Source of the DNA: Clostridia bacterium
Lineage (GTDB): Bacteria > Bacillota > Clostridia > UBA1212
DNA: 64,000 nt
Direction: 5' to 3'
NCBI GenBank assembly: GCA_017461545.1
Contig: JAFTXP010000021.1
Coordinates: forward strand, 3,624-67,623
Shown: positions 12,945-44,409 of the stretch, in pieces
Position numbering within the stretch: position 1 is the first letter of the stretch
How the letters are laid out: each line of letters opens with the position of its first letter
Notes under the pieces: model-generated
Told to the model about the DNA's origin: nothing
The model's input: only the letters and a program-made list of their open reading frames with translations
Databases searched by the model: none
Position numbers and translations under genes: made by a program

Positions 12945-12987
12945 TATCAACAGTGCTGCACATCCTCCGGGATGTGCAGTAGTCACT
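12945..12987 (-). other. Left junction site of the split murA (putative attL/attR-like site)
   Basis: Minus strand reads gtgactactgcacatccc-GG-aggatgtgcagcactgttgatac. Perfect 10-bp dyad arms ctgcacatcc/ggatgtgcag. Matches 43445-43467 at 21 of 23 positions in inverted orientation. Confidence 0.75.
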
Positions 12988-13307
12988 TCGCCGCAGCGGG
13001 CGAGCAGAGCGCCTAAAAATGTGATTGAGGAGCGGAGCGAGCCTGCAAGGTCCGGAAGAATAGTTGTTGAGGTTATATGAGTGCTGTCAACTGTTATCCG
13101 GTCATTGACAAATTCAGTTTTGCAACCGAGACTTTCAAGGATTAAAAGTGTGTTTCGGACATCTGTTAAATCAGGACAATTTGTTAATACGGTGGTGCCT
13201 CCGGTGATTATTGTTGCTGCTAAAATCGGCAGTACGGAATTTTTGGCTCCGTCAATATCGATTTCCCCGGAAATAGTGTGGCCGCCTTCAATTATGTATT
13301 GTGACAT
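12960..13307 (-). pseudogene. murA: 5' half (codons 1-116) of split UDP-N-acetylglucosamine 1-carboxyvinyltransferase; the ORF runs on out of homology to 12798
   Basis: MSQYIIEGGHTISGEIDIDGAKNSVLPILAA (Lys22), LRSS (Arg92) and HPGGC (Cys116), followed by 53 unrelated residues. Confidence 0.92.
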
Positions 13308-13410
13308 AGCGTGATTCCTGCCTTGAAGATTATGTTGAATTTATATTTACATAATATGCAAACCTGCAAAAGTGTGATAAAATGTAAAGAACTTAATGTT
13401 ATAGAAGACG

Positions 13411-16131
13411 GTGGGAATTTTGGAAAAACTTTTACTTGTTGACGGAAACAGCATAATGAACAGAGCCTTTTACGGCACCCAAAGCAGTTTTATGAAAAAT
13501 GCGGAGGGACTTTTTACCGGTGCACTTTTCGGCTTTATGAATATTCTTCTTAAGTATTTAGACGAAGAGAAGCCGGAGTATGTTGCTGTTGCGTTTGATG
13601 TAAAGGCTCCCACTTTCAGACATAAGGCTTATGACGGTTATAAAGCTACCAGAAAAGGTATGCCAAATGAGCTTGCCATGCAGATGCCTATTATAAAGCA
13701 GATTTTATGCGCTATGAATATTTCGTGCATTGAGATTCCCGGATACGAGGCCGATGATATCATAGGTACGTATTCGAGACTTGCTGCCGAAAAGGGTATC
13801 GAAAGCGTGATAGTGACAGGAGACAAAGATTCACTGCAGCTTGTAAACGAATTGACAATTGTAAAGCTTCCCGTCACAAAGCAGGGCACTACCACGACAG
13901 ATACTATAGATATAGAAGCTTTTAAAAACAAGTACGGCGGACTTATGCCTATCAGACTGATTGACCTTAAGGCTCTTATGGGAGACTCGTCCGATAATAT
14001 TCCCGGAGTTCCGGGCGTGGGAGAGAAAACCGCGGTCAGCTTGCTTGCGGAGTACGGCAGCCTTGATGGAGTATATGCACATGTAGAGAACATAAAAAAG
14101 CCTGCTCTTAAGAAAAAAATAGAAGAAAACAAAGAGTCTGCGTATATGAGCTATGATTTGGCGACTATCATGCTTACCGTGCCGGTTGAGAAAACGGTTG
14201 AGGAGCTTGCAAAGGGTGAGTGGGACAAACCGGCTCTGATTAAGCTTCTTACGATGCTTGAGTTTAAGAGCATAATAAAAAAGATGAAGCTCGAAGGCGT
14301 ACCGGTGTCTGATGATAGTGAAAAAGATGCCGACGAAAAAGGCGCGGTCGTTATGTCGCTGTTTAATGTTCTTGCAGGCGAGGGTATTGATATAAATAAC
14401 ATAGAAAACGAAGCTTCTGCGGCGCCGCTTCCGGCGGTTGTTCCTAAAAATACTGTTTTCGTCATGTTTTATGAGGATCTTAAGGAGTTAAAGGCTACGG
14501 TTGAAAAAAATCCTTCCGAGGTATATATCGAATGTGACTTCAGCGGGAAATATCCCGTTGAGATGAGAGTAAATTTTGACAATGACGACACGGTGTTTTC
14601 GGTTGCGTTTTCGATACCTGACACGGAGATCAATTTCATAGATATAATGAAGCCTGTTTTTGAGAATTCCGATATCAAAAAGATTGCTTTCGACAGTAAA
14701 CCGATTATTTTGTGGCTGATGACAAACGGCTGCGGATTTGAGGGACTTTGGTGTGATTTGTCCATTGCCGCATATCTTACGGATTCGACGAGAAAAAATG
14801 ATAATTTTTCTGATGTTTGCAGACTTTTTACGGGCGAAGAGCATGTCGGCATAGAGTATATGCCGCTTGCATCTGAGATGGCTGTCAGACGGCTTGAGAA
14901 GGACGGCATGACCGCTCTTTACAGAAATATAGAATTGCCTCTTGTTCCGATACTTGCATCTTTTGAGTATGAAGGTTTCAAAGTGTCCGAAAAGGTTTTG
15001 AAATCAGAAGGTGTGCTTCTCGAAAAGAGAATAGACGAACTCACTGCGCAGATATATGAGATAGCAGGACGCACGTTTAATATAAATTCGCCTAAACAGC
15101 TCGGAGAGGTATTGTTTGATGAGATGAAGCTTCCGGGCGGAAAGAAAACCAAAACCGGCTACAAGACAGGTCAGGATGTGCTGGAGGCAATCTCTGACGA
15201 GTCGCCGATTATTCCTCTTGTTCTGGAGTACAGACAGAATGTGAAGCTTAAATCCACGTATATTGACGGATTGATTGCGGTTATAGATAAAGAAACCGGA
15301 CTCGTTCATTCGAGTTTTAATCAGACTGTTACTGCGACAGGCCGACTGAGCAGTACGGAGCCGAATCTGCAGAATATTCCGGTAAGACATGAGCTCGGAA
15401 AAAAGATAAGATATGCGTTTGTGCCCAGAAAAGAAAATCATATACTTGTAGATGCCGACTATTCACAGATAGAGCTGAGGGTACTTGCTGAGATGTCCGG
15501 TGACTACTCGATGAAAAAAGCATTTAAAGACGGTGCCGACATACATGCGATCACCGCATCACAGGTGAATAATGTTCCGTTATCGGATGTAACGCCTGCC
15601 ATGCGAAGTGCGGCAAAGGCGGTAAATTTCGGCATTGTTTACGGCATAAGCGAATTCGGATTGGCAAAAGATATCGGAATATCAAGATTTGAAGCTAAAA
15701 AATATATTAACGGATATTTTGAAAAATATCCCGGCGTAAAAGCTTATATGGACAGCGCTGTTGTATTTGCAAAAGAGCACGGTTTTGCTGAGTCACTGCT
15801 CGGAAGAAGAAGATATCTGCCGGAGCTTACTTCTTCAAAGTACCCGATCAGGTCTTTCGGAGAACGTGTTGCAATGAATATGCCCATACAGGGCACAGCA
15901 GCGGATATCATGAAAATTGCTATGATAAAAGTTTACAGCGAGATTAAAAAAAGAGGTCTCAGGGCGAAACTTATATTGCAGGTTCACGACGAACTTCTGA
16001 TAGATGCACCGTTGGAGGAAAAAGACGAGGTCATGTCACTTCTGCGTGAGTGTATGGAAAATGCATTTGAAATGGAAGTTCCGCTGCCTGTTTCGGTTTC
16101 ATACGGAAGCAGCTGGGCTGAATGTAAGTAA
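13411..16131 (+). CDS. polA: DNA polymerase I
   Basis: Motifs LLVDGNS..NRAFY, EADDIIGT, GDSSDNIPGVPGVGEKTA, TATGRLSSTEPNLQNIP, DYSQIELR, KAVNFGIVYG and LQVHDEL. Confidence 0.97.
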   Translation: MGILEKLLLVDGNSIMNRAFYGTQSSFMKNAEGLFTGALFGFMNILLKYLDEEKPEYVAVAFDVKAPTFRHKAYDGYKATRKGMPNELAMQMPIIKQILCAMNISCIEIPGYEADDIIGTYSRLAAEKGIESVIVTGDKDSLQLVNELTIVKLPVTKQGTTTTDTIDIEAFKNKYGGLMPIRLIDLKALMGDSSDNIPGVPGVGEKTAVSLLAEYGSLDGVYAHVENIKKPALKKKIEENKESAYMSYDLATIMLTVPVEKTVEELAKGEWDKPALIKLLTMLEFKSIIKKMKLEGVPVSDDSEKDADEKGAVVMSLFNVLAGEGIDINNIENEASAAPLPAVVPKNTVFVMFYEDLKELKATVEKNPSEVYIECDFSGKYPVEMRVNFDNDDTVFSVAFSIPDTEINFIDIMKPVFENSDIKKIAFDSKPIILWLMTNGCGFEGLWCDLSIAAYLTDSTRKNDNFSDVCRLFTGEEHVGIEYMPLASEMAVRRLEKDGMTALYRNIELPLVPILASFEYEGFKVSEKVLKSEGVLLEKRIDELTAQIYEIAGRTFNINSPKQLGEVLFDEMKLPGGKKTKTGYKTGQDVLEAISDESPIIPLVLEYRQNVKLKSTYIDGLIAVIDKETGLVHSSFNQTVTATGRLSSTEPNLQNIPVRHELGKKIRYAFVPRKENHILVDADYSQIELRVLAEMSGDYSMKKAFKDGADIHAITASQVNNVPLSDVTPAMRSAAKAVNFGIVYGISEFGLAKDIGISRFEAKKYINGYFEKYPGVKAYMDSAVVFAKEHGFAESLLGRRRYLPELTSSKYPIRSFGERVAMNMPIQGTAADIMKIAMIKVYSEIKKRGLRAKLILQVHDELLIDAPLEEKDEVMSLLRECMENAFEMEVPLPVSVSYGSSWAECK

Positions 16132-16170
16132 AAGATTTTGAAAATATTTTGACTGTCGGAGGAAATATAT

Positions 16171-16767
16171 ATGAAAGTTTTGGGTGTCACAGGCGGTACG
16201 GGTACGGGCAAGTCTACTGTTTGTAAAATATTGCAGGATAACGGCGCAAAGATAATTGACGCGGACAAGATTGCAAACGCTCTGCAGAAAAAAGGTACGG
16301 TTGCATTTGATGAGATTATAGAATATTTCGGAGAGGGTATTCTGGACACGGATGGCGAGCTCAACCGCAGGATTTTGGGTGCTCTTGTGTTTAATGACAG
16401 GAATGCGCTTAATGCACTTAATGCCATAGTCCACAAACATGTCTCGATAGAGATTAAAAAGCGTGTCGAAGAGTATCGCAGAGAGGGCGCGGAACTTGTT
16501 GTTCTTGATGTTCCGATTCCGATAGAGGACGGATTTTTTGATACTGCCGAGCAGGTGTGGGCGGTTGTTGCAAACGATGATTTGAGAATTGAGAGGTTGC
16601 AGTTGAGGAACGGTCTTTCGGAAAATGAAGCGGTGGCAAGAATCGGTTCACAGCTTTCTAACAGCGAGTATTCGGAGCTTGCCGATGTTACTATCGATAA
16701 CGAAGGATCTTATGAAGAGCTTAAACAGCTTGTATTATACGAACTCAGAAGATTTAAAGAGTATTGA
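16171..16767 (+). CDS. coaE: Dephospho-CoA kinase
   Basis: GVTGGTGTGKSTV P-loop, IDADKIA and follows polA. Confidence 0.93.
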   Translation: MKVLGVTGGTGTGKSTVCKILQDNGAKIIDADKIANALQKKGTVAFDEIIEYFGEGILDTDGELNRRILGALVFNDRNALNALNAIVHKHVSIEIKKRVEEYRREGAELVVLDVPIPIEDGFFDTAEQVWAVVANDDLRIERLQLRNGLSENEAVARIGSQLSNSEYSELADVTIDNEGSYEELKQLVLYELRRFKEY

Positions 16768-16793
16768 TAAAATTAAAAATGATTAAGTGCGGT

Positions 16794-16831
16794 GGCGGCG
16801 AAACCCTTTTGCGATGAGAGGTTTCGCCGCC
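16794..16831 (+). terminator. GC-rich hairpin after coaE
   Basis: ggcggcgaaacc / ggtttcgccgcc. Confidence 0.6.
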
Positions 16832-16934
16832 GATTTTAATGCGGCTTGCCGCGTGTTTTATAAATTCTTCATTTGGGAATAATTAAATTGATTAAAAAGA
16901 TTTAATAAAACTGATTTGAAATGAGGGATAAAAT

Positions 16935-17369
16935 ATGTGGCTCGGAATATTGATAGCAGTTGCGTCGGGCGCGTTGATGAGTGTGCAGGGAGTGTTTAAT
17001 ACGGAGCTTACAAAGCAGTCGGGAATATGGATGGCTGCCGGATTTGTTCAGCTGAGCGGTTTTGCTCTGTGTCTTTTGATGTGGCTTTTTTCGGGTAGAC
17101 AGGGAAGCGTCGGAGAGCTGTTTTCTGTAAATAATAAGTATATGTTGCTGAGCGGTGTAATAGGAGCGTTAATAACTTACACCGTAATAAAAAGTATTGA
17201 ACTTTCGAGCCCTGCAAAGGCTATAATGGTTATAGTGACTGCACAGCTGCTGGTGGCTTATCTTATTGAATTGTTCGGACTGTTCGGTGCGGAAAAACAG
17301 CCGTTTGAATTTAAAAAACTGTGTGGAATAATACTTGCAATAATCGGTTTTGTGATATTTAAATTGTAA
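16935..17369 (+). CDS. DMT family (YdcZ-like) membrane transporter
   Basis: 144 aa, five hydrophobic segments, SGALMSVQGVFN and IELFGLFG. Confidence 0.8.
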   Translation: MWLGILIAVASGALMSVQGVFNTELTKQSGIWMAAGFVQLSGFALCLLMWLFSGRQGSVGELFSVNNKYMLLSGVIGALITYTVIKSIELSSPAKAIMVIVTAQLLVAYLIELFGLFGAEKQPFEFKKLCGIILAIIGFVIFKL

Positions 17370-17473
17370 AGCTCGGTATATACAAATCAGGAAAAATGTG
17401 TTAAAATGTCCAAGCGTGTCGAATGGTGACATGTAATAGATGAAAAATAATATACGTTCTTTTGGAGGAATAA

Positions 17474-18547
17474 ATGGATTTTACTACTTTCTGGGGGCAG
17501 ATGACGAGCAATCCTTTACTGTTTATGGCGATAGTTCTTACTCTCGGCGTTATTTTGGTAAACGGATGGACTGATGCACCAAATGCGATTGCTACTTGCG
17601 TTGTTACAAGATGTATGTCAGCACGTGCTGCTATCTTGATGTCTGCCGTGTTTAATTTTGCAGGTGTTTTCGTGATGAGCAGAATAAGCCCGGCTGTCGT
17701 AGATACAATTACTAAGATGGTTGATTTTGGCGGTAATGAAATTCCGGGTAGCCCTGAAAATGAAAAAGCGATAATTGCGCTGAGTGCGGCACTGTTTGCG
17801 ATTGTTGTGTGGGCGACTGCGGCATGGATGTTCGGAATTCCGACCAGTGAGAGTCATGCACTTATCGCAGGTCTTACAGGTGGAGCTCTTGCTGTACATA
17901 ACAGCTTAAGAGGTGTAAACGGCGGCGAATGGATAAAAGTTGTCTACGGTCTCGGTATTTCACTTATTCTCGGCTTTGTAGTAGGTTGGTGTGTTTGTAA
18001 GATTGTTGTGCTGTTATTTAAAAATGTTCACAGAAGAAAAACCGAAAAGTTTTTCCGCGGTGCTCAGATTGTCGGTGCAGCGTCTATGAGTTTTATGCAT
18101 GGTGCGCAGGATGGCCTTAAGTTTATGGGTGTAATATACCTATGCACATTGATTATAAGTGGTAAAAGTACTTCTGGTGCTGCTTTGGATATGCCGATTT
18201 GGATAGTTGCATTGTGTTCGATCATTATGGCACTCGGAACATCGCTTGGAGGAAAAAAGATAATCAAGTCCGTAGGTATGGATATGGTAAAACTCGAAAA
18301 GTACCAGGGATTTTCAGCAGATATTTCAGCCTCCATTTGCTTGCTCTTAAGCTCTGTGTTCGGTATTCCCGTATCGACAACACATGCAAAGACAACTGCT
18401 ATTATGGGTGTAGGCGCTGTTAAACGTATTTCTGCGATAAACTTTTCCGTCGTGAAGGAAATGCTTGTCGCTTGGATATTGACCTTCCCGGGATGCGGAT
18501 TGCTTGCATTTGTTTTTGCAAAAATATTTATGATGATATTTTTATAA
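17474..18547 (+). CDS. PiT family inorganic phosphate transporter
   Basis: PiT signatures NGWTDAPNAIAT, HGAQDG, PTSESHALI and PVSTTH. Confidence 0.92.
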   Translation: MDFTTFWGQMTSNPLLFMAIVLTLGVILVNGWTDAPNAIATCVVTRCMSARAAILMSAVFNFAGVFVMSRISPAVVDTITKMVDFGGNEIPGSPENEKAIIALSAALFAIVVWATAAWMFGIPTSESHALIAGLTGGALAVHNSLRGVNGGEWIKVVYGLGISLILGFVVGWCVCKIVVLLFKNVHRRKTEKFFRGAQIVGAASMSFMHGAQDGLKFMGVIYLCTLIISGKSTSGAALDMPIWIVALCSIIMALGTSLGGKKIIKSVGMDMVKLEKYQGFSADISASICLLLSSVFGIPVSTTHAKTTAIMGVGAVKRISAINFSVVKEMLVAWILTFPGCGLLAFVFAKIFMMIFL

Positions 18548-18599
18548 AAGTTGATTTAGTAAATTTGAAAATTTGTAGTACATAGAAAGGACAATAATT

Positions 18600-19220
18600 A
18601 TGTCAAAATCAGATCGTTTTTATTTTGAAAATCTTACAACAGCTGCAGACTATTGCTGCAAGGCTGCAGACTATTTAGTAGAGTGCATGGCTTCCTACAA
18701 CCCGGAAAACATAAAGGAAATGATTACAAAGATGCATGAGATAGAGCATGCTGCAGATAAACAGAAACATGCTATGTCCACAGCTCTTGCAAAAGCATTT
18801 GTAACTCCTATCGACAGAGAAGACCTTGCGGAGATGAGCATTAATATAGATGATGTTGCTGATAATATAGAAGAAGTTATACAGCGTTTTTATGTGGATG
18901 ATGTAAGAAAAGTCACTCCCGAGGCGATTGATTTCTCGAAAAAGATTGCGGATACGGCAAAGATCATGAAGTCTCTTGTGACAGAGCTTGAAAACTTCAA
19001 AAAACCTGCAAAGCTTCATGAGCTTATCATAGAACTCAGCAATGTGGAAGAAGAGTGCGATATTATTTATCTTGAATCTACAAGAAAGATCAGACTCGAA
19101 AACGATGATGTTCTCAAAATCATTGCATGGCGTAAGATATATGAGCTTATGGAAAACTGCGTTGACGCATGTGAGCATGTTGCAGATTCCGTCGGCACGA
19201 TTGTTATGAAGAATACTTGA
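18600..19220 (+). CDS. DUF47 (PhoU-like) phosphate transport accessory protein
   Basis: EHAAD, FVTPIDREDL, EEECD and D.CEHVAD; adjacent to the PiT gene. Confidence 0.9.
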   Translation: MSKSDRFYFENLTTAADYCCKAADYLVECMASYNPENIKEMITKMHEIEHAADKQKHAMSTALAKAFVTPIDREDLAEMSINIDDVADNIEEVIQRFYVDDVRKVTPEAIDFSKKIADTAKIMKSLVTELENFKKPAKLHELIIELSNVEEECDIIYLESTRKIRLENDDVLKIIAWRKIYELMENCVDACEHVADSVGTIVMKNT

Positions 19221-19320
19221 TTTTTGTATCAAAATTTATGATGCAGAGTTTTTAAAGCCGCAGCAAATGTTGCGGCTTTTGTGCGGTTATTCGACTTGTA
19301 ATTTACGCATAGGAGATTAA

Positions 19321-20529
19321 GTGAATATGAATAAGAAAAAAATAACTGATTGGATTATTGCAATTAGTCTTTTCGTTATATATTTGTCAATAAGTATCAT
19401 TTTCAGAGCTTGGGCATATTCCTGGATTATATGGGTAGCATATGCTATTTGCAGAGTTGTAGGAAAAAAACGCAAAATGAGTAAGACGAAAAAAATTGTT
19501 ATAACATCAATAACTGTTTTTTTGACATTTTCATTATTAATGCTGCCGTTTGGCGTATTTACATATCTGTATAATGAATATTTTGGAACCCGATATGAGA
19601 CTTATGAGCCATTATCCTTTAGCATGGAAGACTTTCCGGGGTTAAAAAGAGATAAATACGAATTTAGTTCTGATAAAGGTCAAACACTGGTTGGATATAA
19701 TTACTATCATGAAAATGAAAAAACAAAAGGAATTATTATAATTGCTCATGGATTTGGCGGCGGAGGACATAATTTGTATATGGACTGTGCAAATTATTTT
19801 GCGAAAAACGGATATTATGTATTCGCCTATGACGCAACAGGCAATGATGAGAGTGAAGGCGATTCGGTAAATGGTTTGCCTCAGGGAGTTATCGATTTGG
19901 ATTATGCAATTTCATTTGTTGAAAGTCAGGAAAAGTTTAAAGATCTTCCGATTATGTTATTTGGACATAGTTGGGGCGGATACTCTGTTACAAGCGTCTT
20001 ATCATATCATCCTGAGATTAAAGCGGTAGTGTCCATGTCAGGTTTTAATGAGTCTTCTGACTTAATTAAATCGCAAGGCGAAAGTATTGTAGGAAGTTTT
20101 ATCGAAATCGGAATGCCGTATATAGAAATATATGAAAAAATAAAATTTGGAGAATACGCGATAAATACAAGTATGGATGGATTTGAAAAATCTGACGCAG
20201 GTGTAATGATTATGCATAGCGAAGATGATGATACAGTTCAAAAAAAATATGGTTATGATATTTATTATGCAAAGTACAATAGTTCAGAAAGATTTAAATT
20301 TATTTCATATGAAGATAAAGGACATGATGAGATTTATTATTCCGACACGGCTACAGAATATATTAATCAATTCAATAAAGAATTTGAACTATATTTTGAG
20401 GAACATGAGTTTTCACCGGAAGCAAAAACTGATTATATAAATGAAAATTTAGACAGAACCGTATGGACGAATTTATTGGACGAAGAATTATTTAACAGTA
20501 TCATTGAATTTTACGATTCATACATATGA
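19321..20529 (+). CDS. Membrane-anchored alpha/beta hydrolase
   Basis: HGFGGG, GHSWGG nucleophile elbow, HSEDD and GHD; N-terminal TM segments; visibly AT-rich. Confidence 0.82.
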   Translation: MNMNKKKITDWIIAISLFVIYLSISIIFRAWAYSWIIWVAYAICRVVGKKRKMSKTKKIVITSITVFLTFSLLMLPFGVFTYLYNEYFGTRYETYEPLSFSMEDFPGLKRDKYEFSSDKGQTLVGYNYYHENEKTKGIIIIAHGFGGGGHNLYMDCANYFAKNGYYVFAYDATGNDESEGDSVNGLPQGVIDLDYAISFVESQEKFKDLPIMLFGHSWGGYSVTSVLSYHPEIKAVVSMSGFNESSDLIKSQGESIVGSFIEIGMPYIEIYEKIKFGEYAINTSMDGFEKSDAGVMIMHSEDDDTVQKKYGYDIYYAKYNSSERFKFISYEDKGHDEIYYSDTATEYINQFNKEFELYFEEHEFSPEAKTDYINENLDRTVWTNLLDEELFNSIIEFYDSYI

Positions 20530-20562
20530 AAAATTTCATTGAATAACATGAGATAAATAAAG

Positions 20563-20597
20563 AGCAACTTGCAACACAACGTAGTTTGCAAGTTGCT
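20563..20597. terminator. Bidirectional terminator between the hydrolase and the tRNAs
   Basis: agcaacttgcaa / ttgcaagttgct with flanking A and T runs. Confidence 0.7.
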
Positions 20598-20604
20598 TTT
20601 TTTA

Positions 20605-20677
20605 AGCCTCTAATCGGAATCGAACCGATGACCTCATCCTTACCATGGATGCGCTCTACCTACTGAGCTATGGAGGC
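20605..20677 (-). tRNA. tRNA-Thr(GGT)
   Basis: Cloverleaf GCCTCCATAGCTCAGTAGGTAGAGC-CATCC ATGGTAA GGATG-...GTTCGATT. One C.A mismatch in the acceptor stem; CCA not encoded. Confidence 0.92.
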
Positions 20678-20693
20678 ATATGATTTTGTAAAA

Positions 20694-20764
20694 AGCGGGT
20701 GAGGGGAATCGAACCCCCGTAATCGGCTTGGGAAGCCGGAATTCTGCCATTGAACTACACCCGC
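20694..20764 (-). tRNA. tRNA-Gly(CCC)
   Basis: GCGGGTGTAGTTCAATGGCAGAAT...CGGC TTCCCAA GCCG...GGGGGTTCGATTCCCCTCACCCGC. Confidence 0.93.
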
Positions 20765-20817
20765 AAATCCTGTTGTCAACGTGCATGAATAAGCGGTCAG
20801 TATCGAGCAACAGCGGT

Positions 20818-20846
20818 ATTTTATCACACATGTACTTGTGTGTCCA
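20818..20846 (-). promoter_or_regulatory. Sigma-A-type promoter for the tRNA-Gly/Thr pair
   Basis: Minus strand TGGACA-17 bp-TAAAAT with an extended -10 TG. Confidence 0.6.
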
Positions 20847-20850
20847 GTAT

Positions 20851-21039
20851 TTATTTTTTCATCTGCGGTGACAGGCTTTTTTCGAGTTTGTTTCTCGGAA
20901 GCATTATCATGTGACCGCAGTTGCAGCATTTTATTTTAAAATCTGCACCGACGCGTATGATTTCCCACTCAAAACTGCCGCAGGGGTGTTGCTTTTTTAA
21001 CAATATATGGGAACCGAGTCCGTAATTTTCGAGTGCCAT
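20851..21039 (-). CDS. DUF951 family protein
   Basis: LKKQHPCGS.EWEI.RVGADFKIKC..CGH.IMLPR. Confidence 0.88.
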   Translation of the reverse strand: MALENYGLGSHILLKKQHPCGSFEWEIIRVGADFKIKCCNCGHMIMLPRNKLEKSLSPQMKK

Positions 21040-21182
21040 AAATTATATCCTTTTGTGTCAATGAATTATATATTAAATATTATAATAATCTTTGTCGTTT
21101 TTTGCAATGTCAAAGTCTGCACACGGGTCATATGCGCGCAGAAAAATTTTTAAAAAATATGTAGAATTTTGTCGAAAAAGGT

Positions 21183-30723: not shown

Positions 30724-30742
30724 TTGTGAGGTTGATATTTAC

Positions 30743-36888: not shown

Positions 36889-36951
36889 GCATAAAATGTA
36901 ATATAAGACATAAATATATACCGTCACAGTTTTACTGCAGGCGGTATTTTT

Positions 36952-37401
36952 ATGTCCGATTTCAGAACAAAAAGAAAAATAAAAAAAATGAGAATGGCGG
37001 CATCTGACAGCCGTTCAAGGTTGTTCTATCTCATAAGAGGTGTTGTTATTTCTTTGATAATAACATTACCTGTCATTCTTGCTACAGCAGGTGCTGCATA
37101 TTTAACAGATTTTCCGGAAGAATATATTTCGCCCGTTGCATTTGCTGCTATTATACTGTCCATTGTTTTATCAGCTTTTTTCTCGTCAGCATGGCAGAAA
37201 AACTGCGGGTGGTCAAACGGCACATTGATTGGCGGAATTTATATGTTGTTTATAATTGTATTGAAATCTTGTTTAGAAGACAGGATATGCGCGGATAAGG
37301 ATAGTTTAACTATGCTGCTATTCGGAATTTTATTAGGCTCTTTGTCGGGTTATGCCGGAGTTAAGTTCATGAAAATATCTTCGGGAAAGAAAAGCAGGTA
37401 A
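36952..37401 (+). CDS. TIGR04086-like membrane protein
   Basis: Four TM segments and KNCGWSNGTLIGGIY, resembling the family G..G...G pattern. Confidence 0.65.
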   Translation: MSDFRTKRKIKKMRMAASDSRSRLFYLIRGVVISLIITLPVILATAGAAYLTDFPEEYISPVAFAAIILSIVLSAFFSSAWQKNCGWSNGTLIGGIYMLFIIVLKSCLEDRICADKDSLTMLLFGILLGSLSGYAGVKFMKISSGKKSR

Positions 37402-37420
37402 TGTAAAAGCATAAAATAAT

Positions 37421-37456
37421 GCCCGTTTCACAGGTTCGCAACTTTGTGAAACGGGC
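37421..37456. terminator. Bidirectional hairpin between convergent genes
   Basis: gcccgtttcaca / tgtgaaacgggc. Confidence 0.7.
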
Positions 37457-37464
37457 TGTTTTTG

Positions 37465-38997
37465 TTATGATTTCTTTTTTCGACTTGTTTTTGGAATATA
37501 TCCGACGCCTCTGCTCAGTGAACGTATACGGGTCAGTATATAGAACATCGAAACCATAATACATATAGGTAATTTTTTTATAATCTCTCTTACATAATAT
37601 ATATTATCTGTAGCAGTTTTTAAATTTTGTATGTGATTGGCATATTCTTGTGCCGAGTCAAACGATTTTGTACTGTATGAATCTGTCGAATTTATAGTTG
37701 TATATGTAAAAAGCTTACCGGCTGTTGAGACTGAAAAATATGTTTTATATTTTGTGGGCTCAACAATAGTTATTTCGGAAATTGTATCCAAATTACTGTT
37801 AATAACTTCGAGATGTGTATTGAAGTATTCCGCTGTGAGATTAACGGTATTTACCGAAACAGTACAAGCTGCAAAATTGTCTTTTGTTTCAACGGATGCA
37901 GATCCTGTAGAAATTGAAGACAGTGATTTTTCAGAATCAGCTTCGTATATTTTTGTACCTAAGATGTTTCCGTCAATATCTGCTGATGCAAAAAAAGCAG
38001 AAGGGTAGGGAGACTTATTGTAGTCGTTTTCTGTTACACCTGTACGGTACAGGCTAAAAGTTTCGAGAATACATTTTTTTGAAACAGTGTCAAGTTCTTC
38101 TGAAAGGTCTATATTATTGTCTTTTATATATGTGCTGTACGCAGTCGCATCGAAAAATTTGCCATATGCGACGACAGAAACAGGAACATTGTTTTCCGTG
38201 ATAATTCTTATTTCTTCAATCTGTGAATATGTTTCCGAAAGATTTTCCTCTGCTTTTATGATGTCATTTTGTGACCATAGCAGAGAACCGTCAGTCATAT
38301 TGTATGCATTTATAAATGCTTCTGGAATTCCGGCTTCGTTATACAAGCTGCCGGAAGTATAAATCACATTATCGATAGCTACTGCATCGTGAACTACAGA
38401 ATCCTCTTGCTTTTTTATATGGAAAAGATAGTTGCCGTCAGCGTCTAAGCAAATCGTTTTATCTGAGTCAGTAGCAGTATAATACGTATTTCCGTCAAAT
38501 AAGCTTATGCCGTATTCGGTTCCGGCTTCCTGTGCAACATGTTTTGAATATCTTAAACTGACGCTATTTATAAATTTGCCTTCGTGAGAATATTCATATA
38601 TCTTTCCATAACTTTCTATATCTCCGCGTACTTCGCATATAATTGCAAAACCATAATCGGTTTTTTCTATATCATTAAGCAGGAGATTACAATTTATCTC
38701 ATTTATACCTGATGTGGCAATAAGTGTTCCGTCTGCTTTATACAATTTGAAAAAAACATTTTTGTTAGCATTTCGGTCATTGTCCGGATAGACTGATCCT
38801 CCAACGACCAGTTGATCTTGTCCGTCTGCTGATTTTATCGGTGTAAAATCAGTAAAAATCATCGAATCATATATGATATCACCGTGCGACGCTTCAAAAG
38901 TATCGCGTCTGTATTCTAAAGCATCCGTATATATGGTTGTGATAATTGTGATCAATATCAATATAACCACACATAATCTGAAAATGAAACCTTTCAC
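37465..38997 (-). CDS. Hypothetical extracytoplasmic protein with N- and C-terminal hydrophobic anchors
   Basis: 510-aa ORF with an N-terminal signal or TM segment and a beta-rich middle; GGAG RBS. Confidence 0.7.
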   Translation of the reverse strand: MKGFIFRLCVVILILITIITTIYTDALEYRRDTFEASHGDIIYDSMIFTDFTPIKSADGQDQLVVGGSVYPDNDRNANKNVFFKLYKADGTLIATSGINEINCNLLLNDIEKTDYGFAIICEVRGDIESYGKIYEYSHEGKFINSVSLRYSKHVAQEAGTEYGISLFDGNTYYTATDSDKTICLDADGNYLFHIKKQEDSVVHDAVAIDNVIYTSGSLYNEAGIPEAFINAYNMTDGSLLWSQNDIIKAEENLSETYSQIEEIRIITENNVPVSVVAYGKFFDATAYSTYIKDNNIDLSEELDTVSKKCILETFSLYRTGVTENDYNKSPYPSAFFASADIDGNILGTKIYEADSEKSLSSISTGSASVETKDNFAACTVSVNTVNLTAEYFNTHLEVINSNLDTISEITIVEPTKYKTYFSVSTAGKLFTYTTINSTDSYSTKSFDSAQEYANHIQNLKTATDNIYYVREIIKKLPICIMVSMFYILTRIRSLSRGVGYIPKTSRKKKS

Positions 38998-39038
38998 GTG
39001 TGAAATTCTCCTTAAATATTAGAATAAAAATGAGTAGA

Positions 39039-39680
39039 TCAAAGTTTTCTGAATACTCCGACTACTTTACCCAGAATAAGCAATTCTTTTGTATAGATGG
39101 CTTTCATGTATCTGTTTTCGGGCTGTAATCTGAAACAATCTCTTTCTTTGTAGAAAGTCTTTACCGTTGCTTCGTCTTCTATAAGAGCAACAACGATGTC
39201 ACCGTCTCGTGCGGTAGACTGTCTCTGTACCAGAATATAATCACCGTCCAAAATTCCGGCCTCTATCATACTTTCTCCGCTGACATGAAGCATAAAAGCT
39301 TCTCCGGAAAGAAAATCCCCGGGAACAGGGAACGTTCTCTCTACATTTTCTACGGCCAATATCGGCATACCTGCCGTTACTTTTCCGATAACAGGGACAT
39401 TTACCGAATCCTGGTCAATATCTTGCGTAAAAAAAGGATTTACCGCAGACTTTGTACCTGTAAGTCTTATACCGCGTGTTTTTGAATCATCTTTTTCTAT
39501 ATATCCTTTTTTCTCCAAAGCTGCTAAATGTGTAAATACGGTAGATGAAGAAGTGAGCCCTACTGCTGCACAAATCTCACGTATCGAGGGCGGATACCCG
39601 TTTCTTCTTATACTGTCTTCTATAAAATCAAGAATCTCCTGCTGTTTCGGTGAGGGTAGTGTTGTAGGTTTCCGTGCCAT
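39039..39680 (-). CDS. lexA: SOS repressor LexA
   Basis: GYPPSIREIC wHTH, Ala-Gly cleavage site (VTAG), Ser (GESM) and Lys (TVK) dyad. Start moved to the ATG at 39680, after GAGGT. Confidence 0.96.
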   Translation of the reverse strand: MARKPTTLPSPKQQEILDFIEDSIRRNGYPPSIREICAAVGLTSSSTVFTHLAALEKKGYIEKDDSKTRGIRLTGTKSAVNPFFTQDIDQDSVNVPVIGKVTAGMPILAVENVERTFPVPGDFLSGEAFMLHVSGESMIEAGILDGDYILVQRQSTARDGDIVVALIEDEATVKTFYKERDCFRLQPENRYMKAIYTKELLILGKVVGVFRKL

Positions 39681-39744
39681 AAAATACCTCCGTATATTTA
39701 AAAATTTTGTTTGGGTAAATTGTACCACAAATAAAAATAAATGC

Positions 39745-39756
39745 AAACTTTTGTTC
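39745..39756 (-). promoter_or_regulatory. Putative LexA (SOS) box
   Basis: Minus strand GAAC-AAAA-GTTT, about 65 nt upstream of lexA; fits the Firmicute GAAC-N4-GTTY consensus. Confidence 0.6.
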
Positions 39757-39911
39757 TCTGAAAAAATAGTTAAAAATATTTTTATGGTTTTTCCATATTA
39801 TTAATATAATAAAAAAATTTATATACGAAATAATAATAAAGCAAAATATAATTTAACATATAGTTAAACGGATAAATTTTGCAGTTAATTAAAAACGAGA
39901 AGGTGTTTTAT

Positions 39912-40136
39912 ATGTGTAAAAAGATATTAGATAATGTAATGTGTGTCAGCCGTAAAACCTGCAGAATGTATTCATGTAAATCAAAAATTGAAGGTATGTT
40001 GCTCGGTGTTATGATCGGCTCGATAGGTGGTATTGCATTAGGAATGTTTGTGAATTCAGATGCGGGAAAAAAGATGCGCAACAAAATGATGTGCAATTGT
40101 GTGAACGGAGAGTACAGTACACCTAATGATAATTAA
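39912..40136 (+). CDS. Small membrane protein, YtxH-like
   Basis: GMLLGVMIGSIGGIALGMF...GKKMRNK; AAGGT RBS. Confidence 0.55.
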   Translation: MCKKILDNVMCVSRKTCRMYSCKSKIEGMLLGVMIGSIGGIALGMFVNSDAGKKMRNKMMCNCVNGEYSTPNDN

Positions 40137-40170
40137 TCGATACGTAACAGATTATTATTTCTAAATATGC

Positions 40171-40220
40171 AAGGAGATTCTGCAGGATCGGATATAGGAC
40201 CTATATTGCAGAATCTCCTT
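40171..40220. repeat. Intergenic inverted repeat (14-bp arms)
   Basis: aaggagattctgca / tgcagaatctcctt. Confidence 0.7.
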
Positions 40221-40294
40221 TGTATATTCCGGGAAATAATATAAAAATCGACATGGGAAAAGTTTGGAAATGATATAATAGTTAAAAATAAAAA

Positions 40295-40319
40295 ATCCCG
40301 AACACATTGTGTTCGGGAT
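40295..40319 (-). terminator. Terminator of tRNA-Leu
   Basis: atcccgaacac / gtgttcgggat followed by a T run on the minus strand. Confidence 0.75.
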
Positions 40320-40322
40320 AAA

Positions 40323-40405
40323 TGCGACCGACGAGACTTGAACTCGTACGGGGGTTGCCCACACGCCCCTCAAACGTGCGCGTCTGCCAATTCCGCCACG
40401 GTCGC
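40323..40405 (-). tRNA. tRNA-Leu(GAG)
   Basis: GCGACCGTGGCGGAATTGGCAGACGC-CACGT TTGAGGG GCGTG-variable arm-GAGTTCAAGTCTC-GTCGGTCGC. Confidence 0.95.
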
Positions 40406-40436
40406 ATGGCATACTGTTTTCGCAACAGCAAGACAG

Positions 40437-40465
40437 ATTATACTCATATAAACTTAACCTGTCAA
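40437..40465 (-). promoter_or_regulatory. Consensus sigma-A promoter of tRNA-Leu
   Basis: TTGACA-17 bp-TATAAT on the minus strand. Confidence 0.8.
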
Positions 40466-40520
40466 GCGTTTTTTTACATAATTTTTGAAAAAATCCAAAT
40501 TTAATAGTATTGAAAGGCAG

Positions 40521-42242
40521 ATGAGAAAAATTTTTCAGATAGGATCTGATTATTTATACGGTTTAAATACAAAACAGGCTGACGCGGCAAATCATTTATA
40601 CGGGCCTGCGCTTGTTTTAGCAGGTCCCGGAAGCGGAAAGACATCAGTTATAACGGCAAGAGCAGTCAGTCTGATTGAGAAGCGGAGAGTAAAACCATGC
40701 AGGCTGCTCACAGTAACTTTCAGCAGAGCCGCAGCAGAAGAGATGAGAAAAAGATATATAAAAAAAGTCGGAGAAGAACGCATAACAGACTCAGATGTTC
40801 CCGAGTATTGTACATTACACAGCTTTTGTTTAAAGTCGATAAAGTATTGTAAAGCATATGGTGAGCATGAAAGAAAAATATTGTGCGGCAGTGCAGAGAA
40901 GCATAAATTGATATCGGATATCTGGAACAGGATAAATGCGTCGGAAAACAATATACTTACTTTTGAATATCTTGAATTAATATCAAATACCATAAGCAAA
41001 ATAAAATGTTTCAGCGGTACAGAAAAAGAAGCTGATTTGCGTAAAGATATACAGATAAGAAATTTTGATGAAATATTTTACGAGTATGAAAAATATAAGC
41101 AGGAAAAATATTTAATTGATTTTGATGATATGTTATCGGAAACGGCGCTGTATCTTGCGGAAGATAAGATGTTTAAGGCTCTGATATCAGAGAAATATGA
41201 TTTCGTTCAGGTTGATGAAGGTCAGGATTTGTCTTATTTGCAGATAGAGATAATAAAATCTGTAGGTTCGCATGGAAATGTTTTTATGGTTGCCGATGAT
41301 GATCAGGGAATATACGGATTCAGAGGCGCTGATGTCAAATCTCTTAAACGTTATGAGGAAGCATTCTGCGGTTGCAAACGGTATTATCTTGAGCAAAATT
41401 ACAGGTCCTGCGGTGAAATTGTTTCGACAGCATCGTCTTTTATCAGAAAAAATTCAGACAGATACGAAAAAAATATTTTTACACTTAATAGTGCAGGTGA
41501 AAAGATAGAATTAATCAGGACTCGCGACATTGTATCACAGGCAAGGTTCGCCGCCGAAATTGCACTTGCAAATTCGGCGGCGGGCTTAACCTGCGGTATT
41601 CTTTACCGGAAAAACATGTCGGCTTTAATGCCCTTGCTGCTGCTTTACGAGCTCTCACGCCGCAACGGCATAAAAGCCTCCTTCTGCATATCCGGAGACT
41701 TCATTCACCCCTGTGGATATGAAATAGTAAAAGAATACCTGGAAAAAATACTGCAACATGAGCGTCATTCACGATTCATATGCAAAAGTCCGTCTGATAT
41801 TTTCCGTGATATGGAGAGATGCGGCAAAATTGATGAATACAGGAATTTGTGCGCGCTGAAAGGACAAAGCGCGAAAGAGACTGAATATATTCTGTCTTTT
41901 ACCAAAGTCATGGGCAAAACATTGAAAAAATACGGACAAATAACGGAATTTCTCGAACAAATCAGAACTAATGAGTCGGAAAGTAATATTTTTTTCAGCA
42001 CGGTGCATTCATCGAAAGGGCTGGAATATGACTGTGTTGTAATTATCGATGCTTCGGAGGATGAATTCCCTAAAAGGACAGCTGTTGACAATGAAGAGAT
42101 TGAAGAAGAACGGCGTCTTTTTTATGTTGCGATGACAAGAGCCAAAAAGAAACTTTATATTGTAACTCCTGACAAATGCGGAAGAATAAAATGCAGTCCG
42201 GGTATATTTTTTTGTGAAACAGCATCGGTAATAAACGCATAA
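40521..42242 (+). CDS. UvrD/PcrA-like SF1 helicase, short form
   Basis: Motifs AGPGSGKT, VDEGQD, DDDQGIYGFRGA, LEQNYRS, STVHSSKGLEYD and EERRLFYVAMTRAK. Start at the ATG at 40521, after GAAAGG. Confidence 0.88.
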   Translation: MRKIFQIGSDYLYGLNTKQADAANHLYGPALVLAGPGSGKTSVITARAVSLIEKRRVKPCRLLTVTFSRAAAEEMRKRYIKKVGEERITDSDVPEYCTLHSFCLKSIKYCKAYGEHERKILCGSAEKHKLISDIWNRINASENNILTFEYLELISNTISKIKCFSGTEKEADLRKDIQIRNFDEIFYEYEKYKQEKYLIDFDDMLSETALYLAEDKMFKALISEKYDFVQVDEGQDLSYLQIEIIKSVGSHGNVFMVADDDQGIYGFRGADVKSLKRYEEAFCGCKRYYLEQNYRSCGEIVSTASSFIRKNSDRYEKNIFTLNSAGEKIELIRTRDIVSQARFAAEIALANSAAGLTCGILYRKNMSALMPLLLLYELSRRNGIKASFCISGDFIHPCGYEIVKEYLEKILQHERHSRFICKSPSDIFRDMERCGKIDEYRNLCALKGQSAKETEYILSFTKVMGKTLKKYGQITEFLEQIRTNESESNIFFSTVHSSKGLEYDCVVIIDASEDEFPKRTAVDNEEIEEERRLFYVAMTRAKKKLYIVTPDKCGRIKCSPGIFFCETASVINA

Positions 42243-42277
42243 AATGGTTATGTAAATCAGATTATACGGTCGTGTTA

Positions 42278-43429
42278 ATGACAGTGAATAACAGTTTTGT
42301 GACAAAGAAATTTTTAGGTTCCAATACAGGTGAAGGTTTTAAGGGGTTTTACGGAGATCTGCTCTCGGGGAGCGGATTCGGATACCGTAATCAGAGTATT
42401 TATATATTAAAAGGAGGCCCGGGAACAGGAAAATCAACCTTTATAAAAAAAGTTGCGGCGATGCTTGAAAAGTCTGACTGTGATGCGGAACTGCTTCTTT
42501 GCTCAGGAGACGTAAAAAGTCTGGACGGTGTTTCAAGTAAAACAGGAGGAATAACAGTTGTTGACGGAACAAATCCTCATTGTATCGAGCCGGTTTGTCC
42601 CGGAGTACGCGAAAGCATTGTAAATCTCGGTGCTTTCTGGAACCGTGAAGTCCTGAAGAAATATTCTGATGAGATTGAGAACTTATCGGAGAAAAAGGCG
42701 ATTATGTATAAGAAGGCATATCATTATTTGGCTGCGGCAAATGAAATCAATAAGGAACGGTCGGGCATTCTTAACCGGTGTATTGACAGAAGAAAGATGA
42801 AGTTGTACGGCGAATCTTTTGCAGAAGAGTTGATTCCCAAGAAGGATGATGCAGAAGTATTGGGTGTAAAAAGAAGAGCTTTTTCAACTGCTGTGACTTC
42901 TGAAGGAGTATTCGGTGCAGTTCCGGGAATGAGTGACGGTGAACTTCGCGGATATAAAATCTATTGCATCAATTCCGAACTTGGAATTTCATGTGAACCG
43001 ATACTTGATGAAGTCGCTGAAAAAGCGGTGAGCAGCGGTTATGATGTTGATTTGTATTATTGCGGATTTGACGCCGGAAAACTTGAACACATCGTAATAC
43101 CGGAATTGAATATTGCTATTGTTACTTCAAATGAATATCACCCGTACGATAAACAAAACATAGAACAGGAGATATTGCCCGAGGGTTTCTTAAAGAGTTC
43201 TGTTACAGTCAGTTCGGAGAGATGTATGGATTACGACATAGGATATGCAAAAATTCGTTTTGACGAACTTCTTGAAAGAGCATTCAGGGCGTTGCAGAAA
43301 GCTTCCGGGTATCATCATTCAATGGAGGATTATTATATAGAATCAATGGATTTTGCCTCCCTCAATGATTTTGCCGATTATGTTCTATGCGATATGGCAA
43401 AATTGATACATGAAAATGTTTTAGGATAA
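42278..43429 (+). CDS. P-loop ATPase (PRK06851-like clostridial family)
   Basis: Motifs LKGGPGTGKST, LLCSGD..SLDG and DGTNPHCIEP. The stop codon lies immediately before the right junction site. Confidence 0.75.
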   Translation: MTVNNSFVTKKFLGSNTGEGFKGFYGDLLSGSGFGYRNQSIYILKGGPGTGKSTFIKKVAAMLEKSDCDAELLLCSGDVKSLDGVSSKTGGITVVDGTNPHCIEPVCPGVRESIVNLGAFWNREVLKKYSDEIENLSEKKAIMYKKAYHYLAAANEINKERSGILNRCIDRRKMKLYGESFAEELIPKKDDAEVLGVKRRAFSTAVTSEGVFGAVPGMSDGELRGYKIYCINSELGISCEPILDEVAEKAVSSGYDVDLYYCGFDAGKLEHIVIPELNIAIVTSNEYHPYDKQNIEQEILPEGFLKSSVTVSSERCMDYDIGYAKIRFDELLERAFRALQKASGYHHSMEDYYIESMDFASLNDFADYVLCDMAKLIHENVLG

Positions 43430-43430
43430 A

Positions 43431-43475
43431 TGTGACAGCAGGGGCTGCACATCCCGGCGGATGTACAATAGGCGC
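43431..43475 (+). other. Right junction site of the split murA (putative attL/attR-like site)
   Basis: tgtgacagcaggggctgcacatccc-GG-cggatgtacaataggcgc; dyad-symmetric; inverted homolog of 12957-12979. Confidence 0.75.
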
Positions 43476-44409
43476 AAGGCCTATAGACATCCATGTTGAC
43501 GCATTAAAAGCTCTCGGAATAGATTTTTTTTCCGGAAAAGAGATAAGTACGTGCGGAAGATGCGATGATGCTTTATCTGCTGCAGGTCAGATAAAGGGCG
43601 GTCAGGTATTGCTTAAATTTCCGAGTGTGGGCGCAACGGAAAATCTGATGATTGCCGCTTCTTGCTGTGAAGAAAAAACAGTAATTATTAATGCTGCGAG
43701 AGAGCCTGAAATTTGCGATCTACAGTCTTTTCTTCAAAAATGCGGAGTCAATATAAGCGGCGCCGGAACTCCTGTTATTACTGTGTACGGAACTGTAAAG
43801 CCAAATAAAAATGTCATTCACCGTGTTATTCCGGACAGAATCGAGGCATGTACATATATTACTTGTGCTGCACTTTGCGGTGACGATGTATTTATAAAAA
43901 AATGCGATCCCCGGTATGTCTCTTTACTGATAAAAATATTGAGAAAATGCGGAGCGGCAATAGACTGCGGAAATGAATCGATACGTGTAAAGAAATGTAT
44001 TACCTCTGAATCGTATAAAAAGCAGCAGTTTATTAAAACCGGTCCGCATCCGATGGTTGCAACAGATATGCAGCCCCTTCTTACTGTGCTTGCTGCGTGT
44101 ACAGGTTGTTTTTGTGCGATAGAAGAGACTGTGTTTGCTAACAGGTTTAAACATGTTGATGAGCTTTGCCGCATGGGGGCAAAGCTATATGTATCAGGTG
44201 ATTTCATTTTGTGCGGCGGTGCATCAAAACTAAAACCGGCTATAGTATATGCCAGCGACCTCAGGTGCGGCGCTGCGCTTGTTACGGCTGCGCTATGCGC
44301 AGAAGGTGTTTCTGTGGTATCCGATCCGTGCGATTATATTATGCGAGGATACAATGCACCGGAAAAGAAGCTTGCCGGCGCGGAAGCTTATATAGTGAAA
44401 TTGCCTTAA
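43445..44409 (+). pseudogene. murA: 3' part of split MurA (from HPGGC onward); ORF track start is the GTG at 43432
   Basis: HPGGCTIGARPIDIH, SVGATENLM, AAREPEI.DL, IPDRIEA.TY, TDMQP, NRF.HV.EL, SDLRCGAALV.AAL and RGY. Lacks codons 1-110. Confidence 0.92.

Follow-up and report, generated by a model that had tools for sequence, protein, structure and literature searches.

In Bacillus subtilis the late spore gene sigK is stored split by the skin element and is rejoined in the mother cell by SpoIVCA, and in Clostridioides difficile the corresponding element skinCd is served by CD1231 together with a directionality factor (PMC5025042). In these systems a large serine recombinase restores the reading frame exactly by recombining at a short core common to both gene ends, the stored ends are attL/attR-type hybrid sites, and the interior is a defective prophage which encodes the recombinase and leaves the chromosome as a circle. 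The same principle is used by SP-beta in spsM of B. subtilis, where the serine integrase SprA and the directionality factor SprB rebuild a mother-cell gene (PMC4191935, PMC5499854), and by gin in gerE of B. cereus with GirC and GirX, which is an example that the intervening element need not be a prophage and whose att sites, as in other serine integrases, are inverted-repeat arms around the central dinucleotide where the DNA is cut (PMC5595907). SP-beta and gin are nevertheless mobile or recently mobile, carry their own recombinase and are excised, with no inversion and no essential host genes inside. Here we describe a stretch of 64,000 nucleotides from an uncultured, spore-forming Clostridia bacterium of gut or rumen (lineage UBA1212) (contig JAFTXP010000021.1; hereafter the window), in which a murA gene (for UDP-N-acetylglucosamine 1-carboxyvinyltransferase) is likewise stored split, with attL/attR-type hybrid sites at its cut ends, and in which a short core carried by both halves allows an exact, in-frame fusion. 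The murA case differs from skin in that the sites lie head to head, the recombinase associated with them is encoded on another contig, the target is murA, and the 30.5-kb interior consists of housekeeping genes (polA, coaE, carB-dapF, pdxST, mutL, miaA, lexA and a uvrD-like gene among them) in place of a prophage or other mobile element.

The small serine invertases Hin, Gin and Cin also invert DNA between head-to-head sites with a 2-bp crossover. Enzymes of the Hin type, however, are about 190 amino acids long, are encoded next to hix-type sites of identical sequence, depend on an enhancer and flip their segment freely, whereas the murA case involves a large serine recombinase of 560 to 600 amino acids and non-identical hybrid sites; no invertase of about 190 amino acids was found in or next to the segment, and the assemblies show the split orientation only. 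The closest mechanistic analogue is provided by the engineered inversion switches based on Bxb1 and phiC31, but these are synthetic. Inversion between inverted repeats rebuilds split genes in the heterocysts of Calothrix sp. NIES-4101, in which nifH and nifB are restored by successive inversions and excisions in a terminally differentiating cell (PMC11249958), although there the host is a cyanobacterium, the setting is heterocyst development, the targets are nitrogenase genes, the recombinase genes lie beside the repeats, and the enzymes and sites are unrelated to those described here. Closely related to the murA case are excision-type murA systems in Acetivibrionales and Ruminiclostridium (genomes G161, G433, G434 and G437), which have the same breakpoint, an orthologous recombinase, the core (Y/H)-P-GG-G-C and an attP-like palindrome, but whose halves are in direct orientation 11 to 94 kb apart, predicting excision. 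No publication on these excision-type systems was found in the literature searched, which also contained no account of a murA gene in split form or of an inversion tied to sporulation in Firmicutes; as most subscription journals lie outside that literature, this is not proof of absence. The sporulation-linked gene reassemblies it contains all excise a prophage-like element with its own recombinase. In general, the comparisons and results given here make it likely that the window holds a developmental reassembly of murA akin to skin and SP-beta but in inversion form, with an unlinked recombinase and a housekeeping interior.

The split murA and its junction sites

An earlier note on this stretch, made from the sequence alone, had described murA as divided into opposite-strand halves about 30.5 kb apart, and the reading of the open reading frames (ORFs) and their coordinates confirmed this. 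The 5' part, with its own start codon, comprises codons 1 to 113 and the GG of Gly114 on the minus strand (13307..12967), and the 3' part runs on the plus strand from Gly114 to the stop codon (43456..44409) and includes Cys115, IGARP, TDMQP, DLRCGAA and RGY; the break thus falls between Pro113 and Gly114, inside the catalytic PGGC loop of MurA. As long as the gene is split, the ORF on the minus strand (13307..12798) codes for MurA residues 1-116, with the Lys22 motif GAKN (GAKNS) and the ending EVTTAHPGGC, and then an unrelated tail of 53 amino acids, while the plus-strand frame (43432..44409) reads TAGAAHPGGCTIGARPIDIH and continues through the motifs of the 3' part to the stop. The read-through tail (AALLIHGNITK..., 12798..12966, minus strand) covers the outer arm of the left site and a spacer, and it is effectively non-coding DNA, because it has no likeness to the matching tails in the second species of the same genus or in other genomes.

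Fusion of the two pieces at the common CATCCCGG gives an in-frame gene of 1293 nt and 430 amino acids without gap or frameshift, as the note had anticipated for a protein of about this length after inversion. The joined protein scored 402.8 bits against the murA equivalog model TIGR01072 (cut-off 392.7), with residues 1-426 aligned to model positions 1-414 of 416, a full-length match that is out of reach for either half alone. It has GAKNS, HPGGCTIGARP, ATDMQP and DLRCGAA, and thus Lys22, the Cys115 loop, Asp305 and Arg397 (E. coli numbering). The roles in MurA of Lys22, the loop PGGC.IG.RP with Cys115, Asp305 and Arg397 are well established. No annotated gene crosses either junction, and the murA start and its upstream region (13308-13410) lie within the segment, in agreement with two further statements of the note.

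The source genome is a metagenome-assembled genome (MAG; G000, 1.37 Mb, 69% complete). It also has an intact second murA on contig C16 (435 amino acids, PGGCDIG), which the note had expected to exist if the split copy is conditional, and aroA is present as well; the C16 gene is the housekeeping copy and the split murA is a spare copy. The second species of the same genus (G001) has the same inverted layout, gene for gene, and we used this pair of genomes to estimate nonsynonymous (dN) and synonymous (dS) divergence. The N half is 92% identical between the two species (dN 0.050, dS 1.10, dN/dS 0.045), and the C half gave dN 0.118 and dS 2.82 (dN/dS 0.042). Because dS is saturated (1.1 and 2.8) and dN/dS is only about 0.04, both halves have been under strong purifying selection while split and inverted, and they do not show the decay (dN/dS near 1) by which the note would have recognised a one-off inactivating inversion.

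The left junction site J_N (12943..12992) consists of a murA arm a1, a central dinucleotide and a non-murA arm b2, and reads CTGCACATCC-C-GG-A-GGATGTGCAG in murA sense with the central GG at 12968-12967. The right junction site J_C (43432..43481) is a hybrid as well, in which a non-murA arm b1 is connected through the central GG (43456-43457) to the murA arm a2, and reads CTGCACATCC-C-GG-C-GGATGTACAA. Both junctions have CTGCACATCCCGG-N-GGATGT in common, inverted relative to each other, and a 23-nt inverted repeat (12957-12979 against 43445-43467) is 91% complementary between them; the core CATCCYGGNGGATG occurs in just two copies in the whole 1.37-Mb MAG, one at each junction. On the plus strand the central dinucleotide reads CC at 12967-12968 and GG at 43456-43457, and the 30,487 bp between them form the invertible segment (12969..43455), which holds the murA 5' part with its promoter region and ordinary genes. 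Since GG is not self-complementary, it gives each site a polarity, and the opposite polarity of the two window sites means that recombination between them would invert the DNA instead of deleting or excising it.

To characterise these sites across genomes, 20 junction pairs (40 sites) were aligned, and symmetry was scored as the number of matches over 24-nt arms for the two present sites and for the two reconstructed products, namely the murA site A (a1-GG-a2) and the reciprocal site B (b1-GG-b2). The central GG was invariant in 40 of 40 sites. To the left of GG, Pro is encoded in 20 of 20 N copies compared to 12 of 20 C copies (7 Ser, 1 Thr; Fisher p = 0.003), and to the right of GG, Gly-Cys is encoded in 20 of 20 C copies, while the N copies have Gly in 12 of 20 (6 Glu, 2 Val; Fisher p = 0.003) and Cys in 18 of 20 (one Tyr, one stop). 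The constraint on the MurA motif is therefore limited to those half-sites that a crossover at GG would unite, as a functional joined protein predicts, and the decay of the motif in the half-sites to be discarded implies selection on the joined protein; halves that worked separately would call for the reverse pattern. The mean arm symmetry (of 24) was 12.3 for A and 16.1 for B in comparison to 9.4 for J_N and 9.35 for J_C (Wilcoxon p = 1e-4, 20 genomes), and B is nearly palindromic in G015, G019, G048 and G355 (18-21 of 22-24 positions). The present sites are thus hybrid and their products symmetric around the dinucleotide; judged by these alignments, the junctions look like attL/attR hybrids of a large serine recombinase, and A and B look like attB/attP.

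A separate observation concerns G437 (L184, C3:530700-531400), in which the Cys codon of the core copy in the N half is TGA, which fits its discard on joining. Two other origins of the junction structure were considered and ruled out. A duplication by staggered breaks does not account for the repeat, as the non-murA arms are mutually palindromic in many genomes and the core recurs together with an orthologous recombinase, and a split intein or trans-splicing does not agree with junction tails and leaders that are short and unconserved even within the genus.

Recurrence of the break and the associated recombinase

The same break, between HPG and GC, was found in 29 distinct Clostridia genomes, including one complete single-contig genome and cultured strains, so that the recurrence of the breakpoint, which the note had left to be looked for in related genomes, is now documented. 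The 29 comprise 9 of 61 relatives, 12 recombinase-positive genomes from a class-level sample of 399 genomes and 10 found through named records, 2 of which are duplicates; an order-level survey added no genomes beyond the set of relatives. The nine split genomes among the relatives belong to five families. Across genomes the N part ends at residues 116-120 and the C part starts at 101-112 (107-112 in the set of relatives; 158-159 in G017 and G431). In the protein collection, many MurA N fragments of 115-165 amino acids on long contigs end in (H/Y)PG(G/E)C followed by unrelated tails, and the close relatives of the C half start just ahead of HPGGC. When this collection was searched with the junction-spanning sequence, all close relatives were C halves, and no intact protein exceeded 56% identity. 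Among the cultured carriers are Ruminiclostridium hungatei DSM 14427 (G434), R. cellobioparum subsp. termitidis CT1112 (G433) and Acetivibrio alkalicellulosi DSM 17461 (G437), and further named carriers are Acetivibrio mesophilus N2K1, Anaerobacterium chartisolvens DSM 27016 and a Herbivorax sp.; the cultured carriers identified do not include one with inverted halves.

The orientation of the halves varies among lineages. Of the genomes that could be resolved (both halves on one contig), 4 are inverted and 9 direct. All four resolvable genomes of the window's order (G000, G001, G015 and G017, from three families) have inverted, head-to-head halves 30-38 kb apart, while direct halves, the arrangement that predicts excision, occur in G161 and eight others and lie 11-94 kb apart in G161 (the complete genome), G286, G433, G434, G437 (90.6 kb), G438, G439 and G441. 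The two halves of G431 flank an element of 2.7 kb that includes the recombinase gene, whereas in G161 and G286 this gene is 74-81 kb away from the N half and not within the intervening DNA, which in G161 includes polA and coaE. Because the gene sets between the sites differ among lineages, the inverted state is concluded to have arisen by ordinary rearrangement of an excision-type ancestor and then been kept. In the MurA tree every split copy falls outside a well-supported (100/100) clade of housekeeping murA and is interspersed with intact genes of recombinase-free genomes, implying either several losses or several gains of the interruption.

The G431 element was looked at separately (L167, G431:C17:4001-12000). 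It holds the recombinase, an ORF of 65 amino acids and a protein with two helix-turn-helix (HTH) domains, and is situated within a murG-murA-ftsQ cluster; the 3' half there is without residues ~116-157, Cys loop included, and this murA copy may be decaying or have different boundaries.

The recombinase associated with the split murA of the window is a large serine recombinase with Resolvase, Recombinase and Zn_ribbon_recom domains (G000:C27:55813-57621). Its gene is located between tmcAL-like and guaA-like genes, in a housekeeping synteny that is the same in G001, and by this context it is a stand-alone chromosomal gene on another contig than the murA halves, and not a gene encoded inside an intervening element. 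It is orthologous to the G001 gene and to one gene in each other split genome (40-55% identity). Orthologs (E<=1e-83) were present in 9 of 9 split genomes and in 0 of 52 others among the 61 relatives. In the class sample of 399 genomes, which was evenly drawn, the recombinase was present in 19, and all 12 new ones carry murA split at the same position; in addition, the ten named records found by alignment to the recombinase come from genomes that also carry a split murA. A search for the serine-recombinase catalytic domain found one gene in G001, two in G000 and none in G013 and G018, the two relatives with an intact ortholog of the split murA. Relatives of the recombinase are encoded in 193 species genomes. 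In the inverted lineage the catalytic and Recombinase domains have a dN/dS of 0.18 with an invariant catalytic motif YVR.SRD. The results thus show a large serine recombinase together with the split gene throughout, and the C27 recombinase presumably acts on the murA sites.

Several small ORFs and other recombinases were noticed around this gene. A Cys-rich ORF of 74 amino acids (G000:C27, L072:8608-8832, plus strand) overlaps the recombinase start, and a 42%-identical ORF is found at the same place in G001 (68-74 amino acids); it has no family match and no counterpart beside the recombinase in G015, G017, G048, G161 or G431, and is a candidate directionality or partner factor. In family f2 (G012, G023 and G017; L054, L047 and L048) a different ORF of about 30 amino acids (MAK..I.FKN..DP.V...L.AL.(K/R)YYG) abuts or overlaps the recombinase start codon. 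On the downstream side of the recombinase locus of G000, at a distance of 2 kb, a tyrosine integrase is encoded together with an HTH gene (G000:C27, L072:11932-13977), and a second, unrelated large serine recombinase lies at G000:C19:64451-64879; both are probably parts of integrated mobile elements. In G029, a genome without SpoIVA, a distant paralog of the recombinase (31% identity) is found about 5 kb from the sole, intact murA (G029:C112:21738-29687).

A probable developmental reassembly and its alternatives

The link to sporulation was assessed through gene content and the upstream region of murA. SpoIVA is present in 9 of 9 split relatives. Of the 22 SpoIVA-negative relatives with any murA match, 21 have just one, and most SpoIVA-positive genomes have two or more; across the relatives, then, a second murA paralog seems to be kept only by spore-formers. 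Bacillus has a second MurA, MurAB, which is induced during sporulation and which B. anthracis requires in order to sporulate (PMC12700454). In the window, a -10-like sequence of the CATAnnnT(A) type, CATATTATG (13350..13358, minus strand), precedes the murA start by 51 nt, and in 9 of 10 genomes examined a CATAnnnT(A) motif is found 36-52 nt ahead of the murA 5' half. We take CATAnnnT(A) to be the -10 form of the mother-cell sigma factors sigma-E and sigma-K, and CATATTATG would accordingly be assigned to one of these. These links to sporulation are circumstantial, and the analogy with skin, SP-beta and gin (PMC5025042, PMC4191935, PMC5499854, PMC5595907) is the reason for placing the joining during sporulation and in the mother cell, where it probably occurs.

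From the sequences we infer the inversion event itself, and the course of events may be pictured as follows. The inherited chromosome would store the second murA split, each cut end with an attL/attR-type hybrid site, and the recombinase would bring J_N and J_C together during sporulation and cleave them at GG. It would probably depend on a directionality factor, which other large serine recombinases require to act in this direction. Strand exchange would then invert the 30.5-kb segment rather than excise it and would place the 5' part with its promoter directly ahead of the 3' part, so that an intact gene for a MurA of 430 amino acids would adjoin the downstream gene for a protein of metallo-beta-lactamase fold. 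The reciprocal product would be a palindromic attP-like site between the convergent genes for a major facilitator superfamily transporter and an ATPase. The setting would be the terminally differentiating mother cell, where formation of the spore cortex calls for additional peptidoglycan precursor; the spore would retain the unrearranged chromosome.

The earlier note had proposed an inversion that is either programmed or phase-variable. Assembly of the gene by inversion is supported, and of the two options the programmed, developmental one is favoured over free phase variation, because all assemblies are split and the enzyme is of a directional type. Under reversible phase variation the same recombinase would flip the segment in growing populations and turn murA ON or OFF independently of sporulation. 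In contrast to excision, no DNA is lost by inversion, a change that dividing cells could tolerate and undo, and the essential genes of the segment are intact in both orientations. However, the genus-level group is split in all sequences seen (G000, G001, P0001-P0005, P0113-P0115 and the contigs with the window's C half), the sites are non-identical hybrids with attB/attP-like products, and the excision geometry of the sister lineages would be irreversible in a growing lineage without loss of polA. Moreover, large serine recombinases, which are not of the small Hin/Gin type, are directional and need a directionality factor for the reverse reaction (PMC5595907, PMC12286644), and we regard phase variation as unlikely. 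It is also unlikely, to a somewhat higher degree, that the locus is a stranded relic, that is, an excision-type ancestor which was flipped head to head and left a dead system with a silent murA copy. The inverted geometry is in the minority among resolvable genomes, and the local contexts of G000 and G015 differ from that of G017, pointing to secondary rearrangements, as a relic would have it. Yet the inverted pair G000 and G001, at a dS of 1.1-2.8, has halves with the low dN/dS given above and a recombinase core at 0.18 with its catalytic Ser motif invariant, and the inverted state has lasted in three families of the order with frames intact and the central GG preserved. Head-to-head sites are also no obstacle to the enzyme class, as large serine recombinases invert DNA between such sites in engineered switches.

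The possibility that the halves are translated apart and either assemble non-covalently into an active MurA or have functions of their own is a quite improbable one. Both halves are open and under purifying selection, both keep an HPGGC-coding copy of the core in G000, and a GTG with an AGGA motif precedes the C half there, all of which speaks for a two-piece enzyme. This ribosome-binding-site-like motif was seen in G000 alone, however, and in 8 of the 19 genomes with a contig long enough to include the in-frame stop upstream of the C half, no ATG, GTG or TTG is present between that stop and the His codon or Cys loop (G023 has no such start codon either, but its contig ends before any stop and it is outside the 19). 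The residues that degenerate are those each half would need (Pro to Ser or Thr in 8 of 20 C copies; Gly to Glu or Val in 8 of 20 and Cys to Tyr or stop in 2 of 20 N copies), no intein-like extensions exist, the tails being short and unconserved, and both the strict co-inheritance with the recombinase and the palindromic partnership of the non-coding arms would be left unexplained. In a metagenome bin that is 69% complete, a false join at a short inverted repeat could be suspected, but the repeat has just 23 nt, the layout is the same in another species of the genus, the break is the same in 28 other genomes, and an identical C-half context occurs on an ENA metagenome scaffold of another sample; because layout and break recur, assembly error can be set aside as having next to no probability.

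Some points weigh against developmental reassembly by inversion. The joined form was not encountered, neither as a joined-orientation k-mer in the G000 MAG nor above 73% identity in the protein collection, and a search of JGI metagenome contigs with a pattern of core and a2 gave 0 matches for the joined or the split form and hence had no power; the completeness of the MAG is itself limited to 69%. The link between the recombinase and the sites is correlative, and because the genomes share ancestry, the co-occurrence counts are higher than the number of events that were independent, although the pattern still needs several independent gains or losses across families. A directionality factor was not identified, the Cys-rich ORF before the recombinase being kept only within the genus. 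The promoter assignment relies on a short AT-rich motif, and no consistent or comparable sporulation-type motif was found upstream of the recombinase.

Beyond the single locus, the odds are slightly in favour of a wider reading, in which a host-owned recombinase, free of any mobile element, serves as a natural one-way inversion latch that flips 30.5 kb of essential DNA (with polA, mutL and lexA) in the mother cell and so assembles a cell-wall precursor enzyme, and in which the murA/recombinase system (at least 193 species genomes) has switched repeatedly among element-borne, remote-excision and inversion geometries with the same crossover dinucleotide in the codons of the catalytic loop. A bolder version would have the flip reversible and occurring also outside sporulation, as a heritable ON/OFF switch of murA. 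If developmental reassembly by inversion is true, it would be new in its target, the first committed enzyme of peptidoglycan synthesis cut in its catalytic loop, in a recombinase that has turned into an ordinary chromosomal gene acting at a distance, in essential host genes as the intervening DNA, and in inversion as the joining mode, and it would imply that such switches can outlive the founding mobile element and be re-wired by ordinary chromosome rearrangements. Hundreds of murA genes called 'partial' or 'pseudo' in Clostridia genomes and MAGs are probably halves of a working conditional gene. The system offers natural large serine recombinases, conserved and well-defined 50-bp sites and a natural inversion substrate for the development of recombinase tools, and since cultured relatives carry it, the idea is directly testable in R. 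hungatei, R. cellobioparum, A. mesophilus and Anaerobacterium chartisolvens.

The 30.5-kb segment and its surroundings

The genes of the segment include polA, coaE, a ydcZ-like gene, PHO4/PhoU-like genes (phosphate transporter), a hydrolase gene, carB-dapF, a GntR-aminotransferase gene, pdxS, pdxT, two dockerin/cadherin-like genes, mutL, miaA, two unknown ORFs, a DUF3792 gene, lexA, a uvrD-like helicase gene and the gene of a PRK06851-family ATPase, and a Pfam search found no recombinase or phage genes among its 20 genes. The gene of the PRK06851-family P-loop ATPase (42272..43429, plus strand) has its stop codon abutting the inner arm b1 of the right site, and the ATPase stop likewise abuts the C junction in G001, G015 and G019, in which the order uvrD-like gene, ATPase gene, junction and murA 3' half is kept. 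The identical C half is found in the same context (uvrD-like gene, ATPase gene, murA 3' half and metallo-beta-lactamase-fold gene) on further contigs, among them the ENA scaffold mentioned above. At the other end, polA and the N half are transcribed divergently in G000, G001 and G015, and polA is downstream of the N half in G017, G012 and G161.

The spacing of the sites is about 30 kb in G000, G001 (C18) and G015 (C3) despite a different gene set in G015, which may be coincidence or reflect a constraint on site spacing. Two ORFs of the segment, at 35347-36888 (plus strand) and 37465-38997 (minus strand), had no match in Pfam or NCBIfam; they encode about 510 amino acids and are 43-52% identical between G000 and G001, where their neighbours are 80-90% identical, and they are fast-evolving genes without a known family or function. 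A single ORF of 1350 amino acids at 21490-25542 (plus strand) has the large chain of carbamoyl-phosphate synthase (CarB) fused in frame to diaminopimelate epimerase (DapF), and G001 has this fusion too, at 95% identity. Two large secreted-looking proteins with SH3, cadherin-like and dockerin type I domains are encoded at 28537-32395 (plus strand), and the presence of such dockerin/cadherin proteins suggests a cellulosome-type, fibre-degrading lifestyle.

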